A stretch of DNA of 64,000 bases from an uncultured Methanoregulaceae archaeon (GTDB taxonomy: Archaea > Halobacteriota > Methanomicrobia > Methanomicrobiales > Methanospirillaceae). The notes beneath the pieces are model-generated. The model did not search any database. It saw nothing but the letters and a program-made list of their open reading frames with translations, and was not told the origin of the DNA. A program made the translations under genes and the position numbers. Shown here in pieces: positions 52,217 to 61,637 of this stretch. The first letter of the stretch is position 1; each line of letters opens with the position of its first letter. The DNA is taken from assembly GCA_963717525.1 (NCBI GenBank), contig OY970343.1, positions 1,408,001 through 1,472,000 of the forward strand. The letters run 5' to 3'.

Positions 52217-53224
52217 TCAGAGTTTTATCCGGGCGAATTCGACGAACTGGATTCCGGTAGTATGTACACAGCCAAACAACATCTTCTTTTTGACACTGTG
52301 CGCCATCCTGACCGACCGGGAGATGACGCTCATGGGAAGGTCTGCCTCTTTTTCTATCGCATGCACCAGCATGTCGGAGTGAACATTCTTTCCGCAGTAA
52401 ACGCGGTAGTGATGGCCGAACTTATAACCGGTCCGGGGAATAAAATCGTGCCGGCGCAGCTCGGTATAGACCTTGTCTTTTGCGGCAAGATCCTGGTCGC
52501 TCCCGCTTGCGAATGCGAAAAACTCCTGAGGGGTCAGCGGGGCGCCGTCTTTTGAGACCCGGATCGTTCCTTCGCCCATCAGGTACAGAAGTTCGACCGG
52601 CGAGATCATCAGCCGTTCTTCATCGAACCGTTTCCCGAAACCGGCCTTCTCAAGGTCGGACCCCGGGGGTACCAGGATCATCGCAGACTTGCCCACCAGC
52701 ACCGCATCGCAGGAACCGATTTCGGAGGGTGCACAGGCACCGGTCAGTTTCTGGAGCTTGATCTCGTAATAGGTCAGTTCCTCTTCATCATCGACAACTG
52801 CAAGGACATACTGCTTGCGCATGTTCCGTGCAGTGATCACTTCCTCAATCAGTTTGGTAAACCGGATCGGGTCGCGTTCCGAAAGGACGCGGACGAGGTA
52901 CAGCGACTCCCCGGTCCCCGGCTTTTCTCCGCGCCGGAATACCCGGTAATCGTGGGGGCCGGTCTGGACGACATACCCGCGTTCCCGCAGGTCGCGGTAG
53001 ACAAGAAAACTGCGCAGGAAGTTGCGCTGGTCCGCATATTCGGCAAGGAGCGTATCGAACGTATAGTCAGAAATCTCTATCCTGTGGCGGTGGAGCAGGT
53101 ACAGGGCCTCCTGCGGCGCAAGGCGTATTCCATCGCCTTCGGGCCGCCCGTACCCGCTCTGGTCGTACAGCACCCGCCCGTCCCTGCCGGTCAGCACCGA
53201 AGTGCCTTCAACTGTCGCCTTCAC
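52217..53224 (-). CDS. endA: tRNA-intron endonuclease (homodimeric type)
   Basis: Two repeats; VYRDLRERG, TGYKFGHHYRVY, RMAHSVKK. Confidence 0.93.
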   Translation of the reverse strand: MKATVEGTSVLTGRDGRVLYDQSGYGRPEGDGIRLAPQEALYLLHRHRIEISDYTFDTLLAEYADQRNFLRSFLVYRDLRERGYVVQTGPHDYRVFRRGEKPGTGESLYLVRVLSERDPIRFTKLIEEVITARNMRKQYVLAVVDDEEELTYYEIKLQKLTGACAPSEIGSCDAVLVGKSAMILVPPGSDLEKAGFGKRFDEERLMISPVELLYLMGEGTIRVSKDGAPLTPQEFFAFASGSDQDLAAKDKVYTELRRHDFIPRTGYKFGHHYRVYCGKNVHSDMLVHAIEKEADLPMSVISRSVRMAHSVKKKMLFGCVHTTGIQFVEFARIKL

Positions 53225-53553
53225 TGCTGGATCTATTGTTGCCGAAGTGTTATAAGAGCACGGGAAAACGGGACCCGGTCCAGCGCGCGTCCCCCTAGCC
53301 CCTGATCGAAATCCTTATGAATGGCAAAAGTCCGGAACAATGCCTATTAAATGGTAAAAATCGAACCTGTATAGTCAGATTGTATCTCATAAGTATGCTT
53401 ATTTGCACGTCCCCGAGGGTGGTTTTCATTCCGGGAATATTCGGGTAATACTATAAGGTACATCGATCACCCACACCGGAATCATTTCAGCAGCCAATAC
53501 GTAGTGGCGGAAAAATGATGGTGCATCAGACGAACGACCACGGATACCGACGC

Positions 53554-54156
53554 ATGAGTGAGCTCAACCTCGCAGGTTTTCTCGCGAGGTCAGCCGCAAA
53601 CGGGCCCGGCATCCGGGCCGTCATCTGGGTGCAGGGGTGCCCGATCCGGTGTAAGGAGTGTTTCAACCCGGCGTTCTGGTCCTTTTCTCCGGTCAACAGG
53701 GTTTCTGCAGGCGAGATTTCCGGCCGGATCCTTGCTCTCAAGGATATCGACGGGGTCACGTTCTCCGGAGGAGAGCCCTTTGCACAGGCAGACGCACTTG
53801 CATCTGTGGGAGAAAAGGTGCAGGAAGCGGGGTATACGGTCGTGACCTATACGGGCTACACGCACGAACAACTCACCTCAAATAATAATCCTGCCTGGGA
53901 CCGGCTCCTGGGGGTCACTGACCTCCTCATCGCTGGCCCGTATATTGGATCCCAAGCCTGCGACAAACCGTACATCGGGTCCTCGAACCAGCAGGTCATC
54001 TCCCTGACCGGAAGAGTCCGCACGGATGTCCCGGACAGACAAGCGCATGGTGAGATCGTTGAATTTTCCATTGCTCCCGGCGGCATGGTCACAACCACCG
54101 GTTTTCCCCGGGAACACATGGTCCGGCAGATCGCCGCCCGTTGCCGGGGAGAGTGA
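53554..54156 (+). CDS. NrdG-like radical SAM activase
   Basis: NGPGIRAVIWVQGCPIRCKECFN, GVTFSGGEPF, YTGYT, GSSNQ. Confidence 0.88.
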   Translation: MSELNLAGFLARSAANGPGIRAVIWVQGCPIRCKECFNPAFWSFSPVNRVSAGEISGRILALKDIDGVTFSGGEPFAQADALASVGEKVQEAGYTVVTYTGYTHEQLTSNNNPAWDRLLGVTDLLIAGPYIGSQACDKPYIGSSNQQVISLTGRVRTDVPDRQAHGEIVEFSIAPGGMVTTTGFPREHMVRQIAARCRGE

Positions 54157-54160
54157 TACC

Positions 54161-54559
54161 ATGTCGCATTTCAGCCGTATCAGGACAACATTCCGGCGGC
54201 GCGAGGCGCTGATCCAGTGCATGCAGGAGCTTGGCTATACGGTCGAGACTGATACGACAATCACGGGATACCACGGCCAGCATAACGTGGATATTGCCGT
54301 GAAAAAATCCGGGAGGTACTGCCTCGGCTTCGTGGAGAACCCTGAAGGCACGTACGACATGGTAGCGGACTGGTGGGGCATTTCGGGAAAAGGCGAGAAG
54401 AAAATCGCCGAAGAACTGAACCATCAGGCAGAGACCATCCAGAAAGAATACGCAAAAAAAATAGTGCTCGAACAGACAGCCGCGGACGGCTTTGACCTTG
54501 TCTCGGAGACCGAAGAGAACGACGGGACCGTGCGGATTGTTGTCAGGAGGTGGAAGTAG
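54161..54559 (+). CDS. DUF1257 (Ycf35-like) protein
   Basis: MSHFSRIRT start, GY.G, LGF..Y.MVAD.W, DGTVRIVVRRW. Confidence 0.85.
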   Translation: MSHFSRIRTTFRRREALIQCMQELGYTVETDTTITGYHGQHNVDIAVKKSGRYCLGFVENPEGTYDMVADWWGISGKGEKKIAEELNHQAETIQKEYAKKIVLEQTAADGFDLVSETEENDGTVRIVVRRWK

Positions 54560-54562
54560 GCT

Positions 54563-56123
54563 ATGCAACTTACCGAACCCGATTTCTCCCGCAGGCTGAA
54601 TGTCTCGCTTCGGGCCCGGGTCACCCTGATTGTCGTGATTACCCCGGAAGAAGAGAGGGTGGTATCGCAAATCCGGGAGGTCTGCGAGAGATGGGATCCT
54701 CCCCGTCAGTGCATTGCGTGGGACAGCGTGGATGGTTTTTCCATTATCGTCGGCAATAAAGATTTCCTGAACCAGTCGCGGGACCCGCTTACAGCTCTCG
54801 ACGACATAGCGAAGACCGGGGAGGATGCCGTCATCATCCTCAAAGACTTTCACGAGTACCTGGAACAACCCGCAGGTGAAAAGACGGATCCGCAACTCCT
54901 CGCAGGCATTCCGTTACAACCGGCGCACGATCGTGATCGTGACCCCGACACCCAAGGTACCGGATGAGATCCGCGACGAAGCGGTAATCGTGCATTTTCC
55001 CCCACCAACGGCAGCCGAACTCTCTGCCGATCTCGACAACCTGCTTACCACAAGCGGCATTTCCTGTTCGCTCTCCCCTGCCGGCCGGGAAAAGATCATC
55101 CAGGCAGCCATTGGTATGACCCTCAATCAGGCACGCCGGGCATTCTCGAAAGCTATCGTCACCCATGGTACGCTTGACGACCGGGATATCGATGCGATCA
55201 TCGCAGACAAAAAAGATATTCTGAGGGCCTCGGACGCGCTGGAGTTTTACAGTTATACCGAGGCCCCGGAGAACGTCGGGGGCCTTGCAGTCCTCAAGGA
55301 CTGGCTCTCCCTGCGTGAGCGGGCGTTCACGCAGGATGCGCGCGACTTCGGGCTCCCGGCGCCGAAAGGTATCGCGTTGATTGGCATCCCGGGCACGGGC
55401 AAGAGCCTCACGGCAAAGATGATCGCCGACCTCTGGCACCTGCCCCTGCTCAGGCTTGACGTGGGGGCGCTCTTTGGCAGCCTTGTAGGCGAATCCGAGG
55501 AGAGGACGCGCCGCGCTCTCTCGCTTGCGGAGACGATCAGCCCATGCATCCTCTGGGTGGACGAGATCGAGAAAGCGTTTGCGTTCGGCAGCGGGGATGC
55601 CGGCACGAGCCAGCGGGTCTTTGCCCACCTCCTCACCTGGATGCAGGATAAGACCTCCCCCTGTTTTGTGGTAGCGACCGCGAACAACATCGCTGCCCTC
55701 CCGCCGGAACTGCTGCGGAAGGGCCGCTTCGACGAGATCTTCTTCCTCGATCTGCCCACCATTGAGGAACGGCGCGAGATCTTTACCGTGCACCTCAAGA
55801 AGCGCAAGTGCATCCCCGCGGAGTTCGACCTCGACACTCTTGCACAGAAGAGCGAGGGCTACGTGGGCGCCGAGATCGAGCAGACGATCATCGACGCGAT
55901 GTACCGCGCGTTCAGCGAGAACATGCGCCGGGTCACGACCACTGACATCCTTTTCTGCATGAAGACGCAGGTCCCCCTCTCAGTCTCGCAGCGAGAGACG
56001 GTGGCAACCCTCCGGGCCTGGCTTGCGGAGGGGCGGGCGCAGTCCGCATCGCGGACAGCCACGCCATCTTCGGGGAACGGGAGAGCGATTGCGCTGGAGA
56101 CCTTCGACACAGGGCGCCCGTGA
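54563..56123 (+). CDS. Ycf46-like AAA+ ATPase; apparent +1 frameshift near 54859
   Basis: TPEEER and LKDFH N-domain; VGGL..LKDW, GIPGTGKS, WVDEIEK, ATAN, LRKGRFDEIFF. Confidence 0.88.
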
Positions 56124-56129
56124 GCCTCT

Positions 56130-58936
56130 ATGAAGATTGCCCCCACATTTCCGGTCATCGGCCCCTTGTTCTACCGGCGTTCGGTCAAGGTGATTGCGGG
56201 GGCTGTGAAAAAAGGGGACCTGCAGGCAGTCCGGGAACTGATCGCTATTGCCAGAGCGGGGCCTGATGCGCCTGCGCGGGCGATCGCGTTCGATGCCCTG
56301 GATACCCTTTCATCGCAGGACGCTGATCGATGTGTTCTGCGGGGAGGTGCTGCTCCAGGAAGACCCGGCACTTGAAAAAATTGCCACCAGCCGGGGATAT
56401 CTCCCCTCGGAGCCGGGATTCGCGGCGCTCTTTTTGTATATCACCGGGCAGGACGAGGCATTGTGCCGGTTTGATCCCGACAGCCATCATCCCATGCTCT
56501 CCCGAGGGTATGCTGCGGCACCGGATGGGATCAAAGCCCGGGCGCTCCACCGGGCCTCCGATACCCGCATGGGCAGGATTCTTGCACATGCACTGATCGG
56601 GACGGACCCGGTCCGGGCTGCCGGAACATGGTCGTATGGCGAGTGGGAGACGGTCATCTCCAGCCTGACGGACGAGGGGGCGTGGGACGTGCTGTGGCTG
56701 CTGGTCGTTTCCGCGCCCCCGTCACTCGCGGTCGCGGCCCTGAACGCCATGAAGGTGGCCGGCTGGAGACCGGGGGGTGACGGGATGCAGGTCTTCCGCG
56801 AACTGGTCCGCGAGCTGCCGGAAGCATGGGCGTATCCGGCGCCTGAAAAACCCCTCCTCTCCATGGGGAACCAGGACAGCCAGTGCCTGATACTTGCATT
56901 CTCCCGCGACGGCACACTTCTTGCCTCCGGCGACTGCGACGGGAGAATTGCAATCTGGCAGCGCTCATCAGCCCGGCTCATTACATCCATTACAACAAAT
57001 GCCGGTTCCATCGGCTTTCTTGCATTCGCAGCAGATAACTCGTACCTGGTTTCAGGAGGGAACAACGGGAAGCTTACCTGCTCTGGCATTCCCTTGGGAA
57101 ACACGATCTGGTCGTACGCGGACGAAAGCCACCCGGTTTCCTGTGCTGCAATGTTGGGTAACGGAGAGGAGCTGATTGCCGGTGATGATCGCGGAGGGAT
57201 GATCCGCATCGGGTGCCGGACAGGTAAAACCCTGCTCGCGGTACCAGGGCACCCGTCCAAAGTCACCTCCCTTTCCCCTGCTCCGGACGAAAAAAGCATC
57301 GCTTTTGGCCACGCTGACGGGACCACCCGTTGCCGGGACATCTTAACCGGGGGAGAGAGATGGACCGTGCCGGGCACCGGTGACGCGGTCAGGGCACTTG
57401 CACGCACAGGACAGGATGATCAGGTGTATGTGGTTTATGAACGTTCCCTCCCCGTACTCAGGGACGGGGGCACCGGTGTGCCGGTGCGGACATACACCGG
57501 GTTCTCCGGTCATCCTGCCTGCCACGCGATATCGGCAGAAAATTCTCTGGCCGCAATCGGCAGCGATGATCATGTACTCCGGCTCTGGAACTGGCAGGAG
57601 AAGAACCCGGCAACAGAAATTCCCTTCTACAACCGCCTTCCGACATGCTGTGCCCTGACACCTGACGGGAAACTGGCCGCTGCCGGCTGCAACGAGGGCA
57701 CGATATACTATTTCAGTGTTCCCGAAGGGCGGCGGATAAAAGAATTCCGGGGATACAGGCAGGCAGTCACTGCCTGTGCCATCTCTCCGGACGGCAAGAT
57801 TCTTGCTACCGCGGGAGGAGATGGCACCGTGACACTCCGGGGCATTCCCTCCGGGGAACTCCTCCGGACGCTCACGAGCCCCGCCGGTGCAGTAACCGCC
57901 CTTGCCCTCACCTCCGGTTCGGGTGGCACCGGGATAGTTGCCGGGACTGCTGATGGCAGGGTCCGCATCTTCTCCCAAAAAGACGGCACGCTTGTCAGAT
58001 CCATCGATGTGTACACGCCATCGGTCAGGGCCCTTGCGGTCAGTCCTGACGGGATATACCTTGCCTGTGCCGGGAAAGACCCCAGCCTCCGCATCTGGGA
58101 ACTTGCAGAGGGGGGCCTTGTGGCCACGTGCGAAACTCTCACTACCACCGTCCGGTGCCTCGCCTTCCTGCCGGATACAGCCGCATGCATCTCCTGCGGC
58201 TGGGACGGGGTGGTAAGAATCTGGGATGTGCCGGGCGGGAAACTGACGGGGACACTGTCCGGGCATTCAAGCATCATCACCTGCTGCTGCGTTGATCCCA
58301 GAGGGCGCCTTCTTGTCACCGGGAGTAACGACACGACCCTGCGAATCTGGCAGCGGACCGGTGAAAACAAGAGTGTCGTTCTTGAGGAGGCAAAACATGA
58401 GGTGAGCGCCTGCGCGATCTCACCGGATGGCACCCTCCTTGCCGCCGCAGGCACAGACCCCGTGCTCCGGCTGTACCATCTGCCGGAGGGGACTGCTGCC
58501 GGGACGATCCCCCAGATCCCGGGAAGACCAACTGCTCTCGTGTTCACCGATGACGGGCTCGCGATCGCGGCTGGATATGACCATGGCACCCTCGCGTTCT
58601 ATGCTCTCCACGGGCACTTCCTGATCCGGGCCCTGCCCGCCCATGCAGGCGCCGTCACCGGGATCGTTTCCATAAGGGGCGAAGACTGCATCGTTACCAG
58701 CGGTACTGACGGGATGATCCACATCTTCCGGGTCCCTTTCATGCGGCCTCTGTCACAAACTACCCTTGCAGACCTTGCTTTCGCACAGGAACAGGAAACA
58801 GCCGCAGGTACAGGATGCCATGGCTGAACAGTGGAGGTTTCTCTGCCACCTGCTGTCCATCCGGTTCCAGAACGAGATCGAACTCTGCCCGGCATACCGC
58901 GATGCCGGAGTGTACGACATCCAGATCGTCGGGTGA
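56130..58936 (+). CDS. Large WD40-repeat protein with helical N-terminus; apparent frameshifts near 56325 and 58815
   Basis: More than a dozen WD40-like repeats (SPDG..LA.AG.D..LR.W); corrected C-terminus ...RFQNEIELCPAYRDAGVYDIQIVG*. Confidence 0.85.
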
Positions 58937-58941
58937 TCCCC

Positions 58942-60564
58942 GTGGACAGGTACGCACATTCCCTCCAACCGGCAGTTCGTCTCGGGGTAGACTTCGGAAC
59001 CGGAACGCTTGTCATCGGCATCACGGGACAGGATGGCAAAGGGTACCGTACGCTGGAGTTCCCCGGCTGGTCGCGGGAAATGCCCGGCACAGGAGCCGGC
59101 GGACCGGTGCACGCAGTACCGGTGTTGATCCATTACGACGAGAAAGGGAACAGGACCATTGGCAACGAAGTGGTGCGTGCGGGTGATTCCGATCACCCCC
59201 GGACGGCGCGATGGATCCGGAAATACCTGCTGGAGGAAAGCCCGGTGCGGATCCCGGCCGGTCCGGATCGCCGTATCACGTTCCGCGATGCGGCAACGGA
59301 TTTCCTCACCGCCGTCCTTACCCGCGCAATACGGGAGTACCCCGGGTGCTCTTCGGTTGTCTTTGCCATTCCCAAGGATGTTCCTGAATGGTATACCGGA
59401 TGGCTTGGGAGCATTGCCGATGCTGCAGGCATCAGGTCCTGGCACACGCTTGCCGAACCTGCTGCCGTGGTTGCCGGGTACGGGCTGTCTCCCGAAGCGG
59501 GGCAGGGGTATCTCATCATCCGCTGGGACGAGACGGACTTTTCGGCGTCCTTTATCCTGTCTGAAGGAGCATCGGACCAGTGCCCTGCCGGGGGCCCGCG
59601 GGTGACCGGTACGGCCTGCGATGATACAGGATGCAAGGCTATCGATGGCTGGATCGCACAGGATGTGCTCGCCCGGAACCACATGATGCACAGGGGACCA
59701 AAAACACAGAGGATACATGATAAAATCACCGGAAGGATTGGGGAGCTGTACAGCCAGCTGGCAGCAGCAGATGAGGCCATCATCGGGATCGAAGATCCGC
59801 TTTCCGGAACCACCTTCCCTGCCCGGCTATCACGGGATGATGTTGGCCGGATCCTGACGGAGCACGGGTTTTTGTCAGTCTTTGACCGTACAATCGGCCG
59901 TGCACGTGCAGCTGCCATATCCCGCGGGTGCAAAGAGGTACTGCCCGTCGCCGTCATTATGACCGGCCAGGGGTGTGCGATACCTGCTGTCGAGGATCTC
60001 ATAAAAAAGCAGTTTGAAGGCGTGCCGGTCCTGTCCGATCACCCGCTCGATGCCGTTGCCCGCGGGGCTGCGCTTTTCCTACCCCATGCGAGCCGGACTG
60101 ACCGGATCAAAAACGACTATGCGCTCCGGTACTGGGATTCCAAAAGCCGGGAGCACCGGTTCCGGTTCCTTGTGCGCAGCGGGGCCCTGTACCCGAGCGC
60201 CGGCCAGGTAGCCCGTATCACCATCAGCGCCGCGTACGATGGCCAGACCCGGCTCGGCATCCCCCTGTTCGAGATCAGCAACTCGGCGGATGCGCAGGCG
60301 CCTGCCCTTGAGCTGGTGTCGGACCCTGCCGGGGGGATCCGTCTCGCCATACCACCGGGAGATGCCGGTACCGGGAGCAGGCCGCTTTTGGCAAACGAGC
60401 GGACTCCTACGCTGCTCGCCGCTGACCCGCCGGCACTGAAAGGCGAACCACGGTTCGAACTGACGTTCACGCTCGACCGGGAAAAACAACTGCGTGTCAC
60501 GGCACGCGACCTTGTGACCGGCATGCTCGTGAAAAAGGATGCACCGGTGCACAGGCTGACCTGA
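58942..60564 (+). CDS. Divergent Hsp70/DnaK-fold protein
   Basis: LGVDFGT, FAIP, LAEPAA, MTGQG..IPAV, AVARGAA, FTLD..LRVTARD. Confidence 0.8.
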   Translation: MDRYAHSLQPAVRLGVDFGTGTLVIGITGQDGKGYRTLEFPGWSREMPGTGAGGPVHAVPVLIHYDEKGNRTIGNEVVRAGDSDHPRTARWIRKYLLEESPVRIPAGPDRRITFRDAATDFLTAVLTRAIREYPGCSSVVFAIPKDVPEWYTGWLGSIADAAGIRSWHTLAEPAAVVAGYGLSPEAGQGYLIIRWDETDFSASFILSEGASDQCPAGGPRVTGTACDDTGCKAIDGWIAQDVLARNHMMHRGPKTQRIHDKITGRIGELYSQLAAADEAIIGIEDPLSGTTFPARLSRDDVGRILTEHGFLSVFDRTIGRARAAAISRGCKEVLPVAVIMTGQGCAIPAVEDLIKKQFEGVPVLSDHPLDAVARGAALFLPHASRTDRIKNDYALRYWDSKSREHRFRFLVRSGALYPSAGQVARITISAAYDGQTRLGIPLFEISNSADAQAPALELVSDPAGGIRLAIPPGDAGTGSRPLLANERTPTLLAADPPALKGEPRFELTFTLDREKQLRVTARDLVTGMLVKKDAPVHRLT

Positions 60565-60581
60565 TACAAGGAGGAAAAAAT

Positions 60582-60785
60582 ATGGAAATGCAGGAACTGG
60601 AGATCACAATCGATAAGGAAGGCAGAATACAGGTTAAAGTGAACGGGGCGCACGGTGCTGACTGCCTTGCGATGACCAAAAACCTCGAGGAGGCCGCAGG
60701 AGTTGTGGAGGAGCGGGCCTTTTCACCGGCGTACTACGAACAACCGATGCATGAAGAGCATTATACCTGTATCCGGCGATACTAA
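60582..60785 (+). CDS. DUF2997-like small protein
   Basis: EITIDKEGRIQVKVNGAHGADC..TKNLEEA.G..YYE; AGGAGG SD. Confidence 0.85.
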   Translation: MEMQELEITIDKEGRIQVKVNGAHGADCLAMTKNLEEAAGVVEERAFSPAYYEQPMHEEHYTCIRRY

Positions 60786-60791
60786 AGAAAA

Positions 60792-61637
60792 TTACCGGGC
60801 AAGGTTCCGCACGGCCTGGATGTTGCCCCGGTCATCCCTCCGGTCATCCACCGGTGTCTCGCAGATCAGCGGCAGGCGGGCAAAGGCCGGGTGATGGAGG
60901 ATACGCCGGAATCCGTCCTCCCCGATGAACCCCATGCCGATATGCTCGTGACGGTCAAGGCCACTCCCTAGATCGCCCTTGGTGTCGTTGGCGTGGATCA
61001 CCTTCAGCCGATCGATACCCACAGTCTCATCCAGCTGTGCGAGCGTGGCGGCAAGACCTGCTTCTGTCCGCAGCTCGTACCCGGCGGCAAACGCGTGGCA
61101 GGTATCAAAACAGATACCTATCCTATTGGATTTTTCTATCCCGTCGATGATCCCCTGAATGTGCTCGAAACTGCTGCCCACACTGTTCTTCTCTCCGGCG
61201 GTATTTTCCAGCAGTAGCATGACGTTCGAATCAGGCGATTCAAGCGCCATATTCACCGCTTTTATCACCCGGGCCCTGCCTCCCGCGATCCCGTCCCCGA
61301 GGTGATGACCGAGATGGGTGACAAGACAGGGTATGCCAAGACGCCCGCACCGGTCAAGCTCGGCCTGAAGCGTCTGGACAGACTTTTCCCATATGTCTGA
61401 CTTGGGAGACGCAAGATTGGGGAGGTAAGGCATGTGGTCGACCGGAAGGAGGCCGGTCGTTGTAATTTTCTGCCGGAAAAGGGTGCAGTCAGCATCAGTC
61501 AGGGGCCTGAATCCCCACCCCCGGGGGTTGCGCGAGAACATCTGGAAGACATCGCAGCCGGCGTCCTTTGCCCGGTCGACCGCGAGATCGATAGAGCCGG
61601 CGATCGATACATGCACGCCAACCTTTACCTGTGCCAT
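60792..61637 (-). CDS. nfo: Endonuclease IV
   Basis: GVHVSIAG, HMPYLPNLAS, LENTAG, DTCHAFAAG, DRHEHIG, ETP. Confidence 0.96.
   Translation of the reverse strand: MAQVKVGVHVSIAGSIDLAVDRAKDAGCDVFQMFSRNPRGWGFRPLTDADCTLFRQKITTTGLLPVDHMPYLPNLASPKSDIWEKSVQTLQAELDRCGRLGIPCLVTHLGHHLGDGIAGGRARVIKAVNMALESPDSNVMLLLENTAGEKNSVGSSFEHIQGIIDGIEKSNRIGICFDTCHAFAAGYELRTEAGLAATLAQLDETVGIDRLKVIHANDTKGDLGSGLDRHEHIGMGFIGEDGFRRILHHPAFARLPLICETPVDDRRDDRGNIQAVRNLAR

Follow-up and report, generated by a model that had tools for sequence, protein, structure and literature searches.

A six-gene methanogen cassette that may join a WD40 receptor, an Hsp70-like adaptor and a Ycf46-type AAA+ ATPase in a remodelling machine

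In the DnaK-GrpE(-DnaJ) and ClpB bi-chaperone system, an Hsp70 is paired with an AAA+ ATPase. Another AAA+ ATPase, Ycf46, and the small protein families Ycf35/DUF1257 and DUF2997 have long been orphans in cyanobacteria and algal plastids. DUF2997 or DUF1257 is mentioned in, among others, PMC4284462, PMC13060386, PMC12016546 and a preprint (bioRxiv 10.1101/2025.10.13.678797), and the Synechococcus ycf46 operon is reported (PMC13683863) to be upregulated under severe oxidative stress, in a (p)ppGpp-dependent manner and inversely to ribosomal genes. Here we describe a cassette in which members of all three families are encoded with an NrdG-like radical S-adenosylmethionine (SAM) activase (rSAM), a large WD40 β-propeller protein and a lid-less Hsp70-like protein, in a 64,000-nucleotide stretch (hereafter the window) of the genome of an uncultured Methanoregulaceae archaeon. 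This genome is a single contig of 2.29 Mb, and the closest named homologues of window genes carry the label Methanoregula sp. An earlier note on the window had taken the six genes for a coherent, uncharacterised machine, and the idea of a coherent module held up. The module is also conserved and fits no catalogued system: PADLOC and NCBIfam returned only generic or below-cut-off matches. We propose that the cassette is a regulated receptor-adaptor-AAA+ remodelling machine, a reading that we give an even chance of being right.

The WD40 protein ends in two helices followed by a two-part acidic-hydrophobic tail. This tail is present in 25/25 archaeal copies and in 76 of the 83 bacterial WD40 open reading frames (ORFs) longer than 400 residues, and most of the bacterial ORFs without it are, by inspection, frameshifted fragments. 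The last 8 residues stand out within the genus at 81.5% identity; the remainder of the protein, the N-terminal region of which gave no Pfam match, is at 35-51%. When the C-terminal 72 residues were modelled with the Hsp70-like protein of a relative (G019), the complex scored 0.67, compared with 0.00 for the best control; a mark of that height was reached by 116/157 solved complexes and 2/215 mismatched pairs, and is a rough guide here, where our own alignments were used. At least 56% of contacts agreed between runs, the partner had a predicted local distance difference test value (pLDDT) of at least 57, and residues 64-72 of the modelled 72 were placed in the Hsp70 groove. Since the predicted interface columns are also the best conserved (0.87, against 0.73 and, for the nucleotide domain, 0.59), the tail-groove model has independent support. 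We predict that the WD40 tail is held in the peptide groove of the Hsp70-like protein, which gives a concrete link to the earlier note's idea of a sensor working with an AAA+ remodeller.

The Hsp70-like protein has no helical lid and ends about 12 residues past its DnaK/BiP match at 481-531 of 543. Its ATP motifs were read against the two canonical DnaK rows of the host genome, which keep all tested motifs. The motifs are kept in 40/40 bacterial rows and largely kept in 6/9 rows of other archaeal genera. In this genus, 16/17 rows, including that of the window, have lost the catalytic-lysine position, DxGGGT and most other ATP motifs, and the basal row keeps part of them; the phosphate loops, catalytic lysine, ExxK and GGS that together mark an active DnaK are not found as a set in the window or in 15 other same-genus rows. 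Identity within the genus is 41% in the nucleotide domain, 64% in the substrate domain and 77% in the groove, whereas in other genera the two domains stand at 40% and 45%. ATP chemistry has thus likely been lost from the Hsp70 of this genus, which is probably a static adaptor or pseudo-ATPase. The family would then record an Hsp70 turning into a likely pseudo-ATPase with one peptide partner kept, and its sister genera, some with the intact form and some with the eroded one, allow a direct comparison.

An AAA+ alignment, scanned against GTDB, confirmed 330 loci, of which we analysed the best 80, ranked by likeness to a cyanobacterial protein. These 80 come from Cyanobacteriota, Chloroflexota, Actinomycetota, Planctomycetota, Verrucomicrobiota, Armatimonadota and other phyla. 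When the neighbouring genes were clustered, seven families recurred; every other family was limited to nine loci at most, one alternate-frame AAA+ cluster aside. The 35 bacterial loci with full flanks hold, in permuted order, WD40 (31), Hsp70-like (29), DUF1257 (29), DUF2997 (29), GrpE-like (23) and rSAM (23) genes, with up to four or five WD40 genes per locus, and DUF2997 stands immediately before rSAM in 36/36 loci holding both. The methanogen genes show the same link of this AAA+ subfamily with DUF1257, DUF2997, rSAM, Hsp70-like and WD40 proteins. By gene content, then, the methanogen cassette is the archaeal version of a bacterial module with seven parts, minus GrpE and with a single WD40 gene. 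The gene-neighbourhood survey that the earlier note had called for thus found the module, but in many bacterial phyla, so that it is not methanogen-specific. The earlier view that a methanogen had extended the core with rSAM, WD40 and Hsp70 must be turned around: the bacterial form of the AAA subfamily standardly has them, and the methanogen version is the reduced one, without GrpE.

No GrpE-like gene was found in the 27 archaeal loci scanned, nor in the host genome beyond the canonical grpE, which lies with dnaK elsewhere than the cassette; a search of five genomes with one bacterial query, run with no positive control, also found no such protein. The gene is missing from 12/35 bacterial loci as well and so is not obligatory for the module. 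What appears to be new here is a methanogen module without GrpE and an Hsp70 that in this genus has no ATP motifs and keeps its peptide groove. We found no description of the module in the literature on ycf46, ycf35, slr0374, DUF1257, DUF2997 and chaperone-type conflict systems, subscription papers being outside the search. The single-receptor, GrpE-free methanogen version is the simplest form of the module to reconstitute. Parts of the module also turned up on mobile elements: cyanophage P-SSM2 carries DUF2997-DUF1257 (L074, 5802-6381), Aeromonas phage HJ05 carries AAA+, DUF1257 and DUF2997 (L075, 5524-8629), and a Treponema plasmid has a DUF1257 gene (L073, 8218-8625) within a phage-tail-like locus with sheath, baseplate and PAAR genes. 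Searched for in viruses, the archaeal AAA+ protein matched a single locus (L020), a distant one.

Within the archaea, 29 related loci were chosen by DNA or DUF1257 match. All six genes stand in the same order in 27 of them, as the earlier note's idea of a coherent operon had implied, so that the grouping is not due to chance; one of the others is ended by a contig edge and one is decayed, having lost the WD40 gene and most of the Hsp70 gene, with a stop in DUF1257, no intact rSAM ORF and an open AAA+ frame (L015, in G014). Five of the 27 complete loci have frameshifts or splits of their own. The cassette adjoins endA in 27/29 loci and is single-copy in the host genome. DUF1257 was found in 46/120 genomes of the host family, 28/48 of the genus and 1/180 of the order's other families; across the phylum, it occurs in 8/17 host-family members versus 1/283 others. 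One locus in another family of the phylum (L171, 5490-8319) carries rSAM-DUF1257-AAA+ in the same order, after which its contig stops; it is basal to the remaining archaeal copies and comes from a genome (G419) with 7% contamination. Among five cassette-free genomes, nfo and endA lie 100-320 bp apart in three and are unlinked in one, and one gave no nfo match.

In a quick tree, the bacterial part of which holds 49 of the best 80 of the 330 loci, the 27 archaeal AAA+ sequences form one branch among bacterial ones, with a Shimodaira-Hasegawa-like approximate likelihood ratio test value (SH-aLRT) of 100; this tree singles out no donor lineage. Host distances, from trpS plus endA, follow those of the AAA+ protein with a correlation of 0.95 across 23 genomes, and the two trees have 7 strong splits in common and two conflicts, both touching one host split. 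Pairwise ratios of non-synonymous to synonymous divergence (dN/dS), crude estimates with some saturation from three clades, leaving out the Hsp70 of the third and the whole of a fourth, are 0.03-0.08 for AAA+ (trpS, 0.04-0.07), 0.08-0.15 for DUF1257, 0.14-0.15 for DUF2997, 0.18-0.24 for Hsp70, 0.19-0.26 for rSAM and 0.22-0.29 for WD40, the fastest-evolving gene. Because the AAA+ branch is single, the distance correlation high and dN/dS low, we read the history of the cassette as one old acquisition followed by vertical descent, repeated loss and purifying selection. A stable copy in an anaerobic, non-photosynthetic archaeon shows that what the Ycf46, DUF1257 and DUF2997 families do is of a general kind.

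The putative remodeller carries Walker A, Walker B and the arginine finger in 25/25 archaeal copies. Set against the two ATPase rings of a Cdc48/p97-like unfoldase, it has one intact AAA domain, to which its N-terminal 225 residues could not be aligned (probability 1.8); this region gave no Pfam match and, in an atlas search, only unnamed clusters. The protein falls in a subfamily of its own, with about 60% identity to the copies in the module and 37-43% to other Ycf46-like proteins. At its C-terminus (window, about 56085-56110), most copies have a short alternating hydrophobic strand, a possible second ligand of the Hsp70 groove.

To what was observed directly in gene content, conservation, descent, motif loss and the preservation of tail and groove, our model adds the following steps. 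The WD40 receptor would bind target (client) proteins, its C-terminal tail is predicted to dock in the groove of the private Hsp70, and after hand-over a ring of the Ycf46-type AAA+ protein would remodel the captured complex or set it free. The AAA+ protein may have DUF1257 and DUF2997 as small cofactors, and one of the proteins of the module may be the substrate of rSAM, oxygen permitting. The bacterial Hsp70, with its ATP motifs intact and a GrpE of its own, would be able to bind and release the tail in cycles. The family of this methanogen would have acquired the module a single time, with GrpE either absent from the start or soon lost; the loss of the Hsp70 ATP motifs in this genus would have come afterwards, probably leaving a static adaptor. 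The Synechococcus operon suggests, by analogy, that the cassette most likely serves in a regulated response to stress or growth arrest and not as a mobile anti-phage island; this setting is the least certain part of the model.

Several observations weigh against this model. The pore-loop position of the AAA+ protein is aliphatic in 19/25 archaeal copies (mostly Leu) and aromatic in 6, which weakens its reading as a strong threading unfoldase. The modelled complex resembles solved Hsp70-peptide complexes, so that its pass may reflect memory, and likeness is not binding. Client capture and the hand-over from Hsp70 to AAA+ are steps that we infer, and the stress evidence comes from a distant Ycf46 in a three-gene operon that may not be this module. 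The cassette is also absent from most genomes of the family (74/120). Finally, core genes also occur on phages, on plasmids and inside a tail-like locus, and several variable WD40 genes per bacterial locus fit conflict better than housekeeping stress.

These last points lead to a reading that we take seriously and yet consider unlikely, namely a nucleoside triphosphate-gated conflict or anti-virus system in which the variable WD40 proteins would recognise proteins of an invader, the pair of chaperones would set the threshold, and AAA+, rSAM or the small proteins would carry out the response. Bacterial loci with one to several variable WD40 genes are spread patchily over many phyla, including multicellular groups, the WD40 gene evolves fastest, some of the core genes on phages and plasmids lie beside toxin-antitoxin genes, and the theme is common to the chaperone-based systems of Kaur et al. 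(PMC7159879). However, the PADLOC check proposed in the earlier note gave no system match, and there is no defence-island context. Bacterial neighbours are mostly metabolic or housekeeping genes (60 ORFs scanned in Pfam), and PADLOC matches fell in 11/135 neighbour ORFs from 26 loci, nearly all of them to generic domains, a figure that has no background control beside it. Moreover, the methanogen copy is single, fixed beside endA, vertically inherited and under a dN/dS well below 1, and its cassette has no recognisable effector domain. The defence role that the earlier note had entertained is left with little ground by this fixed housekeeping site, the vertical descent and the generic nature of the PADLOC matches.

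The two small proteins each have a near-invariant feature of their own. In DUF1257, Ser2 and His3 are invariant in 124 sequences, and an MSH start is also noted for Ycf35 in PMC13060386. Its model has a pLDDT of 86, and the best fold match (Z 6.8, root-mean-square deviation 3.5, 79 residues aligned) is tied with several unrelated folds, with no Foldseek match at E<=0.001. One protein (P0165) has an N-terminal extension and two tandem DUF1257 domains with the Ser-His internal, which hints at function as a dimer and makes it less likely that the N-terminus has to be free. The GxxC motif of DUF2997 was found in 119/120, 26/26 and 47/47 sequences; the model of this protein gave no fold match (best Z 3.7), and a PDB profile search gave nothing significant. 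A natural DUF1257-DUF2997 fusion was not retained, the one match (P0391) looking like a read-through fragment; an atlas row at 0.79 was kept as a lead and not used. DUF1257 Gly36 as a glycyl-radical site was not supported: DUF1257 has a loop resembling a glycyl loop, but this is not invariant, and the residue is no better kept with rSAM (32/37) than without it (13/14).

In rSAM, CxxxCxxC and GGEPF are invariant in 16/16 sequences. The protein scores 95.3 bits against TIGR02491, under the cut-off of 126.1, and its C-terminal hairpin resembles the N-terminus of DUF2997 (hhalign probability 80 over 14-16 columns; 38-48 for other module hairpins). A role as activase of the host NrdD was discarded, as a separate NrdG2 in the genome passes its own cut-off; NrdD is located about 1 Mb from the cassette. 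The host's class III ribonucleotide reductase is itself split (C1:415615-417330 and C1:1852468-1852620; L162, L163): the region matching the C-terminal glycyl-radical part lies far off in a small ORF that has a Cys-rich ORF next to it, and a further frameshift seems to have caused the break.

These features could also describe a radical- or metal-centred machine with rSAM as the active end, in which the DUF2997 Cys and the DUF1257 Ser-His would together make up one radical or metal site, to be assembled or reset by the chaperones and the AAA+ protein. The conservation of these residues would fit, as would the constant adjacency of DUF2997 and rSAM, the hairpin common to both, and the position of the cyanobacterial DUF pair beside the 4Fe-4S ferredoxin Fed7, described in PMC4284462; with NrdG2 serving NrdD, the cassette activase is in addition spare. 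On the other hand, rSAM is missing from 12/35 bacterial loci and from all 8 cyanobacterial loci checked while the rest persists, Gly36 does not follow its presence, and the hairpin match is short. We regard this explanation as improbable.

The layout of the locus is given in Table 1. The earlier note had placed six co-oriented genes with gaps of 3-17 bp between endA and nfo. The genes, their shared plus strand and their place stand; the gaps are 4, 3, 6, -4 (a GTGA overlap) and 17 bp in cassette order. One correction applies: the AAA+ and WD40 frames are not open as assembled. In relatives (L059, L060, L062, L064, L066), a zinc-ribbon and CAP-domain gene often lies on the opposite strand between DUF2997 and nfo.

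Table 1. Positions of the cassette genes, flanking genes and upstream features in the window
Feature	Position	Strand	Remarks
endA	52217-53224	-	Gene on one side of the cassette
Conserved non-coding region between endA and cassette	53308-53487	+	Ends in a short T-rich stretch
TATA-like boxes	53308-53321, 53344-53354, 53443-53457	+	In the upstream region
Invariant blocks	53382-53397, 53403-53414, 53429-53437	+	In the upstream region
12-base seed complementary to mcrB 5' leader	53403-53414	+	Candidate antisense RNA seed or shared regulator site
NrdG-like radical SAM activase (rSAM)	53515-54156 (alternative start 53554)	+	PF13353; CxxxCxxC, GGEPF; C-terminal hairpin
DUF1257 (Ycf35 family)	54161-54559	+	PF06868; invariant Ser2-His3; predicted alpha/beta fold
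Ycf46-type AAA+ ATPase	54563-56123	+	PF00004 plus lid; 519 residues in intact relatives
Large WD40 β-propeller protein	56130-58936	+	Pfam WD40 families; conserved two-part C-terminal tail
Lid-less Hsp70-like protein	58933-60564	+	DnaK/BiP matches in PDB, best E 2e-7; peptide-binding groove kept, ATP motifs eroded
DUF2997	60582-60785	+	PF11211; 67 residues; near-invariant GxxC cysteine
nfo	60792-61637	-	Gene on the other side of the cassette

Upstream of the cassette, the 180-base non-coding region has 79% mean column identity in 15 same-genus genomes, at a synonymous divergence (dS) of about 0.5-2 in the flanking genes, so that it is conserved far better than silent sites. It has no Rfam match and is partly kept in two cassette-free genomes (G020 and G004). 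The single other strong match of its 12-base block in the host genome lies just upstream of mcrB (G000, C1:1532342-1532352; L203). An 11-mer of the block is found in 50/60 family genomes, with 14/30 first-match loci upstream of mcrB. The mcr leader itself, a short hairpin and a conserved tail 30 bases past a TATA box, occurs once in 25/30 same-genus genomes, with 0 control matches, and stands 97-109 bases before mcrB in 24/26. The endA-side block is the reverse complement of the leader element in 24/25 genomes with both loci, giving at least 12 straight pairs. The only change in the seed core is G-U compatible, and two cassette-free genomes lengthen the pairing to 19 and 23 pairs with internal G-U. 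Predicted duplexes reach -32 to -56 kcal/mol against shuffled means near -18, a difference expected from the choice of segments, and the RNAalifold structure is weak (-6.5 kcal/mol, little covariation).

The pairing pattern favours a plus-strand antisense RNA that would act on mcr mRNA through the seed; the alternative is a shared DNA site, read on the minus strand at a similar distance from a TATA-like box. Either way, mcr, the key gene for making methane, may be under RNA control or shared regulation through the seed, and we found no description of an mcr antisense RNA or of this seed in the literature searched. The seed is kept in genomes that have no cassette, and 11 leaders of cassettes in other genera do not have it (at least 4 mismatches of 15); we therefore consider it a neighbour of the cassette and not a required part. 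We view as a long shot the proposal that the cassette serves, in this genus, as the protein side of a growth-arrest switch. In that picture, a transcript starting before the first gene would carry the antisense seed to the mcr leader, and one promoter region would both throttle methanogenesis and induce a remodelling machine of bacterial origin, with an ATP-free Hsp70 adaptor for a tail-tagged receptor. In other genera (L051, L053, L054, L055, L057, L069, L070), tandem palindromic boxes with 11-base spacing stand before the TATA-like element upstream of rSAM. Their arrangement suggests a dedicated regulator.

The broken AAA+ and WD40 frames are due to an extra base at 54859 in the AAA+ gene and extra bases at 56323 and 58812 in the WD40 gene. 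Bases 54859 and 56323 are missing from the contigs of 4/4 runs from four studies, and base 58812 from those of 3/3 runs covering the site. A single 41-kb public contig covers the whole stretch and differs by exactly three gaps, at the extra bases; the public contigs carry about 20 substitutions relative to the window and may come from a sister strain. Since independent contigs do not have the extra bases and both frames are open in close relatives, the breaks are most likely assembly errors; programmed frameshifting and a true pseudogene were rejected on the same evidence, and whole-protein analyses used intact relatives in place of the two broken genes. The three frameshifts, the eroded Hsp70 motifs, the decayed copy in G014 and the many losses might together recall a pseudogenising acquisition with no current role, but this is hardly tenable with the indels absent from independent contigs, dN/dS of 0.03-0.29 in all six genes, an AAA+ protein as constrained as trpS, and a groove and tail that are selectively kept.

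Compared with the systems already described, the cassette is alike in some parts to each. With the cyanobacterial and plastid Ycf46 operon and the DUF2997-Ycf35(DUF1257)-Fed7 cluster, it shares the Ycf46-type AAA+ protein, the MSH start of DUF1257 and DUF2997 (PMC13683863, PMC4284462 and PMC13060386); in contrast to those clusters, the methanogen genes form one putative operon with rSAM, WD40 and Hsp70-like genes, have no Fed7 and belong to a non-photosynthetic host. The NrdG-NrdD class III pair has an activase like rSAM in CxxxCxxC, GGEPF and overall size, but rSAM scores below the family cut-off, has no NrdD nearby and bears an extra C-terminal hairpin in a genome with its own NrdG2. The conflict systems of Kaur et al. 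2020 (MoxR-vWA ternary, β-propeller and GAP1-N2 with Hsp70-GrpE; PMC7159879) resemble the module in a chaperone/AAA+ core, variable repeats and patchy spread in complex bacteria, and some variants include Hsp70-GrpE or radical SAM; unlike these, the six cassette proteins have no MoxR, vWA, GTPase or effector-associated domain in Pfam. The terms 'ycf' and 'CDC48' are absent from the main text of that paper, and DUF1257, DUF2997, ycf46 and ycf35 from two of its supplements, further source data being outside the search. Against the PADLOC catalogue (IteAS/IetA, pVip, HEAT-ARM), there were single generic domain matches, with IteA at 82 bits against a cut-off of 510 and no protease partner. The cassette does not fit any of the named systems compared above. 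Its relation to the DnaK-ClpB bi-chaperone lies in the pairing of an Hsp70 with an AAA+ protein, a GrpE-like factor being present only in the bacterial form of the module. It departs from that pair in having no lid and no J protein, an AAA+ protein of Cdc48/Ycf46 and not ClpB type, a groove that appears dedicated to one conserved tail and, in this genus, an Hsp70 without ATP motifs. In the way it would work, the cassette is most like an Hsp70-AAA+ bi-chaperone narrowed to tail-tagged receptors.

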